Assembly (NCBI GenBank): GCA_050298595.1
Contig: JBNKUM010000066.1
Span: 1 to 20,150 of the forward strand
Length of the DNA stretch: 20,150 bases
Source: Gammaproteobacteria bacterium
Lineage (GTDB): Bacteria; Pseudomonadota; Gammaproteobacteria; GCA-001735895
Direction of reading: 5' to 3'
The notes beneath the pieces were generated by a model that did no database searches, was not told the origin of the DNA, and saw only the letters and a list, made by a program, of their open reading frames with translations. A program made the position numbers and the translations under genes. Shown here piece by piece: positions 1 through 1,549 of the stretch; positions within the stretch are counted from its first letter, which is position 1; each line of letters begins with the position of its first letter.

Positions 1-134
1 CCTCTACGGTGTTCATAGTCCTGACCGCTACTCGCATCCTGCCCACAGAGAAAGGCTCGACGGACACAGCGCGAGGTACAGTGGTAATACGGGGTGGATT
101 CGATAGCGATTTGGGTTTTCCGTGCTTGAGGCAT
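1..134 (-). CDS. 5' part of a RAYT-like / IS200-like Y1 (HUH) transposase, running off the window edge
   Basis: Manual translation from ATG at 134 gives [44 protein letters not shown], matching the '[18 protein letters not shown]...YEHRR' N-terminus of this family. GGAG RBS at 141-144 (minus). Not in the ORF track. Confidence 0.85.
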
Positions 135-259
135 AACTCACTCCTTTGATATTAATGAATGCGTTGAAAATAGAAAAGAAGGGCTGTATTGTCAACTTTT
201 ATTTATGGGTGTCCGTTAATCGTTCTCTCACTCTGCGACATGCTCAACTTACCAAAAAC

Positions 260-266
260 GTTAAGT
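260..266 (+). other. Integron-type core site GTTAAGT (GTTRRRY) opening putative cassette 1
   Basis: GTTRRRY lies 12 nt before the ATG at 279, the same layout as the GTTAGGT at 810. The left half of this attC is not recognisable. Confidence 0.45.
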
Positions 267-278
267 TGCTGGAAAAAA

Positions 279-491
279 ATGAAGCTAAATGCATACGGAA
301 AAATGATAGAAGTATCCAAAATCTCAGGGAATTGGATTGTTTTTTTTATAGGAAATGAAGGGAAGAAACGTACAGCTTACGATATTACCCTCCCTCAAGA
401 ATTGAAAGAAAATGAAATAGTCCAATATCTTGAAGACTTACTTCATGAATGGGCTACTCCTTCAAATCAAACAATTACTGAAATTAAATAA
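279..491 (+). CDS. Small conserved hypothetical protein (70 aa), cassette-like
   Basis: Part of ORF 189..491; the ATG at 279 is the more plausible start. MKLNAYGKMIEV...GNEGKKR...YLEDLLHEWATP resembles a small proteobacterial family (recalled). Confidence 0.7.
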   Translation: MKLNAYGKMIEVSKISGNWIVFFIGNEGKKRTAYDITLPQELKENEIVQYLEDLLHEWATPSNQTITEIK

Positions 492-733
492 ATAGAAAGA
501 TACATACATCATGATCAGCTCCCGGATACGACGCCTGGGTCTGCGCCACCGTTTGACCACTATGGATGGTGGAAATGCAGATATTGCAGGACGCAATATA
601 TCTGTCTTTCCCACTCTCTTCACAGAACTGCAGTTGCCGTCGGCTAGTACTTTTTAAAGTATTCATTTATGATTACTCCCGATAATGTACCGGGGACTTT
701 CACCCCATAAGATCGTGCTCATGCAGGGCACAC
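491..733 (-). mobile_element. ORF-less group IIC(-attC) intron remnant or mini-derivative inserted in the attC bottom strand
   Basis: Minus strand from 733 reads GTGTGCCCTGCATGAGCACGATCTTATGGGGTGAAAGTCCCC...TAGCCGACGGCAACTGC, closely resembling class C intron domain I starts (O. iheyensis intron GUGUGCCCGGCAUGGGUGCAGUCUAUAGGGUGAGAGUCCCG). The 5' exon ends CTGT (canonical IBS1 TTGT). No RT ORF and no clear domain V. The left boundary is inferred. Confidence 0.7.
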
Positions 734-816
734 ACAGGCACCTCAAAAGGAATATCGTCACATCCGTGCCGCTTCGTAACCGCTTTAGCGCTCGTCTTTT
801 AGGTTAAACGTTAGGT
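734..816 (+). other. attC site (right of the intron insertion point)
   Basis: AC-AGGC-ACCTCAAAAGGA (L'' side) pairs with TCTTTTAGGT (795-804, L' side) with an unpaired extra base, followed by TAAAC and the core GTTAGGT at 810-816. Confidence 0.7.
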
Positions 817-821
817 GATCA

Positions 822-1184
822 ATGAAATTATTAACAGAAGTTATGGAGCATGAAGAATTAACACGAATTCGAATCTTATTCGATTCAAAAGGAATACCTG
901 TATTTATTGGTAATGAAGATTCAGCAAGAAATTTCGGTTTTATTTACCCTGCCCGGAAGTACAGTATTTTTGTGATATATGAAGAGCAATATCAGGAAGC
1001 ACTAAGCTTGCTTGATAATGATACCTACGAAGTGCAAAATCCCGTAGATCCGGATGAGCATCAAAAATTGATCGAAACTAATAGTAAAAATTCTTTTAAT
1101 AAATTATTCAAAGTTATCACGATAATAGGAGCCGTATTGTTTATCTCGATAGCCATATTGATAATAATTTCTGTAAATACCTGA
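822..1184 (+). CDS. DUF2007-like (putative signal-transducing) membrane protein, cassette 2
   Basis: N-terminal 'RILFDSKGIPVFIGNE...IFVIYEEQYQEALSLL' pattern and a C-terminal TM helix. Starts 5 nt after GTTAGGT. The stop lies within ACCTGAC (1179-1185), one mismatch from the inverse core ACCTAAC. Confidence 0.75.
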   Translation: MKLLTEVMEHEELTRIRILFDSKGIPVFIGNEDSARNFGFIYPARKYSIFVIYEEQYQEALSLLDNDTYEVQNPVDPDEHQKLIETNSKNSFNKLFKVITIIGAVLFISIAILIIISVNT

Positions 1185-1204
1185 CATTTAGTGACAATGC
1201 AGTT

Positions 1205-1549
1205 AGTGCCTGGATCTGTTGAACTGCGAATATAAAGCATACCATTCTGGATCATTTACATGAATGACTCTTGCTTAACCGTATAGGCACAGAATCCTCA
1301 GGTTGTCTTCAAAGGCAGCAAACATAATCTTCATTCTGAGTAGTTGTTGAATATGAGATGCGGTTTCGTTTCCATTGCCAGTCACGTTTAACCAGATAAC
1401 TCTGTTCTTACTCATTACCTTTAGTGAATCCACTCCTTTGGGAGAAATGTTAACGCGACTATCCTGAGTCGCTGTGCCTACAAAGAATATTTTTGTTGTT
1501 CGATACAGAGCACGAGCTTGTCTGATATTTCAGTCTATTGCTATCCCAT
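1205..1549 (-). pseudogene. Pyridoxamine 5'-phosphate oxidase-family (FMN-binding) protein pseudogene
   Basis: GAGGAG RBS and ATG at 1549. Translation: MG*Q*TEISDKL...EQQK/IFFVGTATQDSRVNISPKGVDSLKVMSKNRVIWLNVTGNGNETASH...RMKIMFAAFEDNLRILCLYG*ARVIH..DPEW. It has three in-frame stops, a 1-nt frameshift near 1490 and a 3' truncation. Confidence 0.85.

Follow-up and report, generated by a model that had tools for sequence, protein, structure and literature searches.

How did the 5′ end of a group IIC intron, cut down to 243 nt, come to lie inside what looks like the recombination site of an integron gene cassette? The segment in question occupies positions 491–733 of the 20,150-nt stretch analysed here (the window), which is the entire contig C66 of a 5.49-Mb, 119-contig gammaproteobacterial genome. 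A previous interpretation made from the letters of this stretch (the sequence-only reading) had left two explanations standing: an internally deleted relic of an intron, or a short attC-targeting element or structured RNA mobilized in trans. From comparison of the window with its source genome (G000), a congener (G001) and further relatives (C and L denote contigs and loci throughout), we consider it likely, at a probability of about 0.85, that the minus strand of 491–733 is an immobile, non-catalytic relic of an attC-targeting-type group IIC intron.

Group IIC domain I forms the 5′ part of the insert

Read on the minus strand, the insert has a class-C-type 5′ end at 733 (GTGTGCCC...), opens with GTGTGCCCTGCATGAGC... 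and closes with ...TCTTTCTATT at 491. Joining position 490 to 734 gives AAATA|AC on the top strand, followed by AGGCACCTCAAAAGG. The coordinates and both junctions proposed in the sequence-only reading were reproduced when the sequence was read again. The insert comprises the following parts:

553–733, minus strand: domain I (DI), nt 1 to ~181 of a group IIC intron, with GTGTG at 733–729 (by homology).
553–604, minus strand: two-hairpin DI 'module' (alignment of 18 distinct copies, compensatory changes, alifold).
512–552, minus strand: remnant of the C-terminal coding region of the intron reverse transcriptase (RT), KRWRRPRRRIRELI (alignment to the G001 copies and to G002:C187).
491–511, minus strand: last 21 nt of the insert, TGATGTATGTATCTTTCTATT (no other copy in the genome or in the fetched loci).

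Positions 736–553 are 95% identical to G000:C108:1074-1258 (E 7e-79), and 736–512 are 94% identical to G001:C5:10962-11187 (E 2e-94), the best match among 40 relatives. Matches at E ≤ 0.001 were found in 12 of 41 genomes (G000 plus these 40), and more distant kin of the 5′ part in G000 are 5′ fragments at C96, C75:869-977 and C74. The related 5′ copies likewise follow a stem-loop, and their 5′ exons end in TGT. The insert combines the group II 5′ sequence GUGYG with DI, of which about the first half is retained. Class C introns are compact, carry a CGC triad in domain V (DV) and target hairpins. Homologues of the 5′ part run on into the group II model RF02001 (110.6 bits at L041, 137 bits at L012 and 67.9 bits at L024) and also continue into RF01998 and RF00029, which bears out the group IIC origin that had been proposed for the insert.

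At gathering score, Rfam gave 0 matches in the whole window; at E ≤ 10 over 350–900, it gave no group II family, only Zeta-pan (21.8 bits) and JPX_2. The sequence-only reading had treated the lack of a group II model match at 640–733 as fatal to an intron origin, a test that proves unsound. Because the D1-D4 models begin ~110 nt inside full-length relatives, the silence of Rfam on 640–733 is uninformative about intron origin, and most of the intron sequence retained in the window lies upstream of any Rfam model. The G002:C61 intron has its start near locus position 877, and window 740–610 aligns to 881–749; RF02001 (110.6 bits) covers 768–604 and RF01998 covers 556–475. C18 and C75 of the source genome share this layout.

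The 3′ part is reverse transcriptase coding sequence and the core is missing

The insert has no RT or maturase ORF (open reading frame), and what is left of the RT is 14 codons (552–512). These codons align with KQWR(K/R)PRRRIREL(I/L)KLGV... of the G001 copies and of the G002:C187 RT. The G001 copies match the window past the point at which C108 diverges, and then read KQWRKPRRRIRELIKLGVRKSDAI..SRKSYWRLSKTLATNAGLNNAHF..IGLISVRTLWCKIHHPATAR to a stop; where the window stops, they continue ...KLGVRKSDAI..SRKSYWRLSKTLATNAGLNNA. In the uninterrupted RT of G002:C187, the same peptide lies at the C terminus, ...GWIRRRLRMCYW|KQWRRPRRRIRELL... (...RMCYW|), and this protein matches TIGR04416 at 1.1e-25 over residues 2–146, to the end of the model. 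A tblastn search with the G002:C187 RT returned 901 plasmid records at <60% identity, the best listed being 49–52% identical. One homologue that was inspected (H9; 48.8% over 216 aa) is an ltrA gene lying antisense between aadA2 and cmlA in a class 1 integron. Within the source genome, RVT_1 matches occur at C13, C75 and C119 only.

After ...GAGCTGATCA, the window has 21 nt (491–511) without any relative. Against the rest of the 528-nt element at G001:C5, their best match is GATG.AGTATCT before DV, a match equalled by 144 of 1000 shuffles; they could be a leftover of 3′ intron sequence or filler introduced by a second deletion. As the sequence-only reading had noted, no DV is recognizable: RF00029 has no match at E ≤ 10 in 350–900, and relatives score 41–48 bits. 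The source genome also holds DV matches ending ...CCCGAT|TA. Neither RF02001 nor RF01998 matches in the window, where the alignment leaps from DI into RT codons, and the insert is without the 3′ half of DI, domain II (DII), domain III (DIII), DV and domain VI (DVI). The 21 nt that match nothing, together with the lack of DV after a junction shared with other copies (below), show that the window copy underwent a second deletion of its own.

Two other identities for the 3′ part were tried and rejected. In an alignment of 491–560 with eight intron 3′ ends, the best match was the 5′ strand of the C74 DV (equalled by 8 of 500 shuffles), a resemblance to a degenerate DV that was set aside because these positions turned out to encode the RT. 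The sequence 3′ of the hairpin was also considered as a novel RNA; it is RT-coding.

The first deletion junction is shared with ~528-nt relatives

A complete relative at G001:C5 is 528 nt long, from GTGTG to ...CCCTATCCCGAT, with a DV of 47.1 bits. In this 528-nt family, DI runs as far as nt ~181 (GGTCAA) and is followed directly by the W|KQW codons, so that DII, DIII, the 3′ half of DI and the greater part of the RT are gone; the ~528-nt G001 derivatives (minis) keep the RT tail (the last ~75 codons), DV and DVI. The identical DI/RT junction is present in seven sequences: the window, four in G001, L064 (a 552-nt contig of another genome) and L066 (a 1,240-nt metagenome contig). Counted by collection, the junction was found in 4 stretches from genomes and 1 from metagenomes, and among 79 genomes of the order it was present in 2. 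Visible microhomology at the junction is limited to 2 nt (AA), and the copies that bear the junction have no RF02001 or RF01998 match at E ≤ 1. The 5′ flank is known in five of them; all five flanks end in TGT after a stem-loop (four TTGT, one CTGT) and all differ.

These results bear out the internally deleted relic, in that DI is fused to RT codons at a junction shared with relatives and DV is lost. The alternative offered with it, a short element or structured RNA mobilized in trans, fails for the 243-nt form, which shares neither its second junction nor its last 21 nt with any other copy: none of the same length was found in its own genome, the 40 relatives or the 79 genomes of the order. 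Of the suggestion that same-length copies might sit in other attC sites, what stands is that ~528-nt relatives share the first junction elsewhere.

Across the initial 140 nt of DI, G001:C5 matches C108, whose DI is normal, at 100% identity, and the other minis are 95–98.6% identical, a star-like pattern that fits repeated derivation from one master. Over the 73 codons of the RT tail that were compared, where numbers are small, the ratio of non-synonymous to synonymous substitution rates (dN/dS) is 1.09 between two G001 minis (3 synonymous and 10 non-synonymous changes), whereas between lineages it is 0.10–0.19 at synonymous divergences (dS) of 0.5–1.25. This difference suggests that the minis evolve neutrally once formed. 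The full-length, module-free RT of G002:C187 stands at a dS of 0.5 from the G001 minis, and the other junction-bearing lineages (L064 and L066) at 0.85–1.25; together with the dN/dS of 0.10–0.19, this suggests a junction recurring on backgrounds whose divergence took place under constraint on the RT. The RT tail is frameshifted in one of the four complete minis.

In three of those four, an ORF of 76 codons covering the RT C terminus is open, with its ATG inside the second DI hairpin (CCACCATCCATGGTGG). The first of the three (P0001, 76 aa) matches no Pfam or NCBIfam family; the TIGR04416 model stops just before the region that P0001 represents.

L064:45-272, minus strand: 76-codon mini ORF (P0001).
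G001:C248:41-268: 76-codon mini ORF.
G001:C97:13918-14145: 76-codon mini ORF.

The lineage is also represented in G000 by dispersed fragments. Those from the 5′ end are at C108, C96, C75:869 and C74; those from the 3′ end, with RT tail and/or DV–DVI, are at C48:37414-37128, C48:41742-41595, C85:166561-166782, C100:88730-88847, C76:100174-100091, C74:13703-13631 and C60:274-335. At G000:C18:~4039-3330 on the minus strand (L012) lies a ~710-nt ORF-less group II intron (RF02001 137 bits, RF01998 62.9 bits, RF00029 48.2 bits), a candidate intact ORF-less class C ribozyme. A 48–50-nt repeat family forms short tandem arrays on more than 30 G000 contigs (for example C49:208-303, C56:50294-50391 and 53893-54038, and C17:32124-32219) and sometimes lies inside or beside intron fragments, as inside C108:~857-807 and beside the DV at C100:88636-88723.

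The insert splits an attC-like site at its R″ box

The site that received the insert has two parts:

486–490, plus strand: left-hand portion of the R″ box of the attC-like site (AAATA|AC), severed by the insert (read directly, with computed join).
734–816, plus strand: rest of the attC-like site, namely AC of R″, spacer, L″, variable loop, L′, spacer and R′ (by inspection).

By inspection, R″ is at 486–490 plus 734–735, L″ at 741–750, L′ at 796–804 and R′ (GTTAGGT) at 810–816. Nine pairs join L″ to L′, with a single base bulged out, and the R boxes pair at five of seven positions. The assignment rests on this inspection: R″ fits RYYYAAC poorly, and the minimum-free-energy fold of the join does not contain that hairpin. 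The bottom strand of 734–816 is the 5′ exon hairpin of the intron, and a similar site at C75:780-877 precedes another intron 5′ fragment. A weak Zeta-pan match falls on the bottom strand of the attC-like site (756–806, minus; 21.8 bits, where the gathering score is 56.7), which hints that the Zeta-pan motif and attC hairpins look alike.

The insertion point reads CTGT|T on the bottom strand, and the bottom strand after CTGT reads GTGTGCC in place of TATTT. The insert lies on the minus strand and both flanking ORFs (189–491 and 822–1184) on the plus strand. Group IIC-attC introns insert into the bottom strand at TTGT/T in R″, antisense to the cassettes (PMC7923331 and PMC3001079). The bottom-strand insertion at an attC-like R″ box, opposite to the cassettes, that the sequence-only reading described was confirmed, with CTGT|T instead of TTGT/T. 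Since an R box is split, the site is probably no substrate for the integron integrase IntI, and the two ORFs would then act as one unit; judged from the sequence, the split attC is probably inactive and the flanking cassettes fused.

The window contig has no IntI gene; integron-integrase genes are present at C89, C75 and C99, of which the C99 gene contains stop codons. No uninterrupted form of the cassette was found in the 40 relatives with queries 734–1200 and 100–490, which matched only at 75% over 125 nt of ORF 822–1184 in G011 and in copies of a repeat at 100–220.

A two-hairpin module of domain I ends at the junction

The sequence-only reading had ascribed to the insert a hairpin of its own at 578–587/593–604. 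The hairpin exists; it is a conserved, covarying stem-loop of DI. It forms hairpin 1 (604–593/587–578) of a module of ~50 nt that also contains hairpin 2 (572–566/563–557) and that occurs in 18 distinct copies in the source and related genomes. Both stems covary, with compensatory forms ATAT/ATAT, GTTT/AAAC and ATAA/TTAT in hairpin 1 and CCACCAT/ATGGTGG, CGCCAT/ATGGCG and CCTACC/GTAGG in hairpin 2, and alifold recovers both. In the window copy, an ATG of hairpin 2 has become ATA, at the cost of one pair. The 3′ edge of the module (GGTCAA|AC) is the first deletion junction.

The module is also found inserted in RT ORFs. In L066, ~50 nt of it separate YW from KQW in an RT ORF that is otherwise long and is decayed at YADD. 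At C75:90216-92202 on the plus strand there is a full-length intron, its RT interrupted by one in-frame TGA, which adjoins an IntI gene (C75:87838-88698, minus strand). This intron carries its DI module (90332–90383) a second time, as ~50 nt at 91796–91846, between LLGW and KAYFDIAE, where it shifts the frame, and the flanks at G012:C216:288-340 are the same as those of the C75 insertion (W^KAYF). The insertions in RT ORFs accordingly occupy two TGG^AAA sites, W^KQW (L066) and W^KAYF (C75 and G012:C216).

The insert is present in source reads

Four DNA runs of one study contain 86–95% of sampled words of window 150–1250. Contigs from X1, at depths of 30.9–36.1, cover 184–593, 564–668 and 651–1250, and contigs from X3, another run of that study, cover 271–591, 562–661, 651–762 and 733–850. 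In both runs, contigs extend >31 nt to either side of each insert junction, and their depth matches that of the flanks. No joint that skips the insert was found in the X1 or X3 contigs, which show presence, so that rare empty-site variants are possible. X1 also has a loose end at window 512: a contig matches from 512 upward and then carries a longer RT tail (...AGCTGGGCGTCAGGAAATCTGATGCCATCA, minus strand), so that a less decayed member of the family is present in the same sample, outside the binned genome.

Origin of the insert and alternative explanations

We propose the following course of events, in the order we infer. An intron would have entered the attC of this cassette by reverse splicing at CTGT|T of the bottom strand, in antisense orientation to the cassettes. 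An internal rearrangement, borne by that copy or by its cDNA, would have joined DI nt ~181 to the last ~75 RT codons at W|KQW. A second deletion, seen only in the window copy, would then have taken what was left of the RT tail along with DV and DVI, leaving 21 nt. Template switching might have produced the DI/RT junction itself, as might recombination of the DI module with a second copy of it in the ORF; a deletion between the DI module and an ORF duplicate, as in L066 and C75, would yield the junction of the minis exactly.

Several observations weigh against this account. With no empty-site copy among the 40 relatives, the pre-insertion state is a reconstruction. The insert ends ...CTATT where the family ends ...CCCGAT, and 491–511, which match nothing else, leave an intact 3′ splice junction unproven. 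A full-length parent with this RT tail is not assembled in G000 or G001, which hold only 5′ and 3′ fragments. Finally, the same junction occurs at five target sites in at least three genomes, so that the shortened form itself could have been copied.

That last point is the substance of the alternative in which the ~528-nt family is a non-autonomous mini-intron, copied to new attC sites in trans by full-length relatives that supply the RT and perhaps also the ribozyme. The shared junction and the distinct, TGT-ending 5′ flanks fit it, and there is a precedent in 17 ORF-less introns of T. elongatus that share one breakpoint and are mobilized in trans (PMC2882425). A second short family (~490 nt, with DV) at no fewer than four sites of one cassette array on G001:C62 points the same way. 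The ~528-nt copies, unlike the T. elongatus introns, have lost the 3′ half of DI, DII and DIII, and without any RF02001 or RF01998 match at E ≤ 1 they have no ribozyme core left. Class C introns carry exon-binding site 1 (EBS1) in the half of DI that is missing here. The star-like DI identities, the position of G002:C187 nearer to the G001 minis than the junction-bearing lineages are, the modules already seated in RT ORFs where a deletion would give the junction, and the single-copy state of the 243-nt form also argue against such mobility, and we regard it as improbable. Repeated formation of dead minis is favoured over mobility of the mini itself. We can be only tentative about the further step of treating the junction between the module edge and TGG^AAA in the RT as a recurrent, mechanism-driven rearrangement of this intron lineage instead of a one-off deletion, and rate it as possible but rather doubtful. 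If it were true, through site-specific template switching in the course of retrohoming or because the module is a small mobile unit in its own right, the lineage would regularly spawn ribozyme-incomplete minis at new attC sites, each with an ORF of 76 codons for the RT C terminus, and the window relic would be one decayed product.

A relic might also have been put to use, as an outward promoter, a transcription barrier or a lock joining two cassettes. IIC-attC introns have outward promoters in DI (P1out, nt 1–200) and impede read-through from the promoter Pc (PMC3001079), and 5′ ribozyme fragments are conserved in Sinorhizobium (PMC4181065); the window retains DI nt 1–181 beside ORF 822–1184, at a split R box. 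A simple sigma-70 scan gave no plus-strand site in 491–733, only 402–431 and 831–858 (shuffle mean 1.2), no orthologous copy among the 40 relatives is available to gauge conservation, the fold is unremarkable and the RT tails within a genome evolve neutrally. Such a use is, in our estimation, quite improbable. An artefact, either a mis-join of repeated intron fragments in a metagenome contig or a chance resemblance, is the least credible explanation of all and can be virtually discounted: the intron is a multi-copy repeat, the depth over 557–741 is 5–10 times that of the flanks because other copies pile up there, and the contig begins in another repeat, but the X1 and X3 contigs tile across both junctions, and BLAST E-values of 1e-79 to 1e-94 leave no room for chance. 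An immobile relic of a group IIC intron is the reading carried forward here.

Folding, flanking ORFs and neighbouring repeats

The folding of the 243-nt insert is unexceptional (z −1.43; 18 of 200 shuffles fold equally well or better). The flanking ORFs are:

189–491, plus strand: upstream cassette ORF, 100 aa, DUF7661 (ORF list; Pfam PF24697, E 3.6e-21).
822–1184, plus strand: downstream cassette-like ORF, 120 aa (ORF list).

Residues 31–99 of the upstream ORF align with positions 2–69 of the 70-position PF24697 profile, and because the match reaches position 69, the C terminus appears complete. Its stop codon (TAA, 489–491) overlaps the R″ box and the last base of the insert, and is still a stop after 490 is joined to 734. 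For the downstream ORF, Pfam gave only weak matches below the cut-off, the best being DUF2007 (3e-4; 21.3 against 25.7 bits).

Window 1–213 is a 98% repeat, present also at C35:365-146 and C69:9507-9295 and as 91–96% copies in G001 and G010. It contains the start (ATG near 134) of a minus-strand ORF that runs off the contig. The first 130 aa of this ORF, taken from C69, match no Pfam family at E ≤ 0.01 and no NCBIfam family at E ≤ 1, which leaves a Y1/REP-type transposase identity unsupported. A further attC at 129–220, upstream of 189, was considered and rejected, as 1–213 is this repeat with the ORF start in it.

The second short derivative noted above lies in a cassette array at G001:C62:16000-30144 (L058), in at least five copies of ~490 nt. 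Each combines a DI stub, in which a loop carries an insertion of 46 nt, with ~120 nt of further sequence, the final RT codons and a DV of 35–42 bits; the flanks differ in three of four, and two copies lie within a 1615-nt tandem unit.

Relation to known introns and significance

The insert resembles group IIC-attC introns such as S.ma.I2 of Serratia marcescens class 1 integrons (PMC3001079 and PMC7923331) in its 5′ end, its bottom-strand target at R″ and its antisense orientation, and the RT tail of its family is ~49% identical to an integron-borne ltrA. Those introns are ~2 kb long with a full ribozyme and RT, whereas the insert, at 243 nt, has DI nt 1–181, 14 RT codons and no canonical 3′ end. 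Fragmented introns outnumber full-length ones in bacterial genomes, and the truncated introns UHB.F1, H.ha.F1 and H.ha.F2, in integrons or clusters of attC sites lacking integron integrases (CALINs), are likewise described as dead fragments in cassette arrays (PMC7923331). These three are 5′-truncated and keep DV and DVI, as expected from incomplete reverse transcription (PMC7923331); the window copy, unlike them, keeps its 5′ end and has lost its 3′ end by internal deletions.

The ORF-less introns of T. elongatus (PMC2882425) are similar in that many copies share one breakpoint and remnants of the ORF ends are visible, and its fragment TeI3n has a deletion of the same DI-to-DIV kind, from DId(5′) to DIVa1 in domain IV (DIV). 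The mobile ORF-less introns described there have a deletion inside DIVb only and keep the whole ribozyme, which the present family does not; a deletion confined to DIV with a complete ribozyme is seen neither in the window copy nor in its 528-nt relatives. Moreover, the breakpoint reported for T. elongatus goes back to a single ancestor, whereas the junction here recurs on diverged backgrounds. Persistent 5′ ribozyme fragments without an RT are also known from the RmInt1 remnant FRE652 and others in Sinorhizobium (PMC4181065). FRE652 belongs to another intron class with another target and is conserved at one locus across strains; of the window relic, no orthologous copy was found in the relatives. 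Full-text literature searches, which in part reached only portions of the papers, found no description of a recurrent junction between a DI module and an RT tail.

For annotation, short class C 5′ ends in attC sites are missed by Rfam and could pass for novel small RNAs, and the odd 3′ parts of such relics may be mere RT coding remnants. The alignment of the tail with DV serves as a warning that short matches are easily over-read. For integron biology, relics that split an R box probably freeze adjacent cassettes as one unit. Intron leftovers of this kind are common; the route of shortening found here is unusual in that it recurs in related elements, which makes the wider pattern of DI/RT junctions a more interesting lead than the relic itself. 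For group II introns, the recurring DI–RT junction and the module duplicated in RT ORFs may mark a preferred template-switch site in class C retrohoming.

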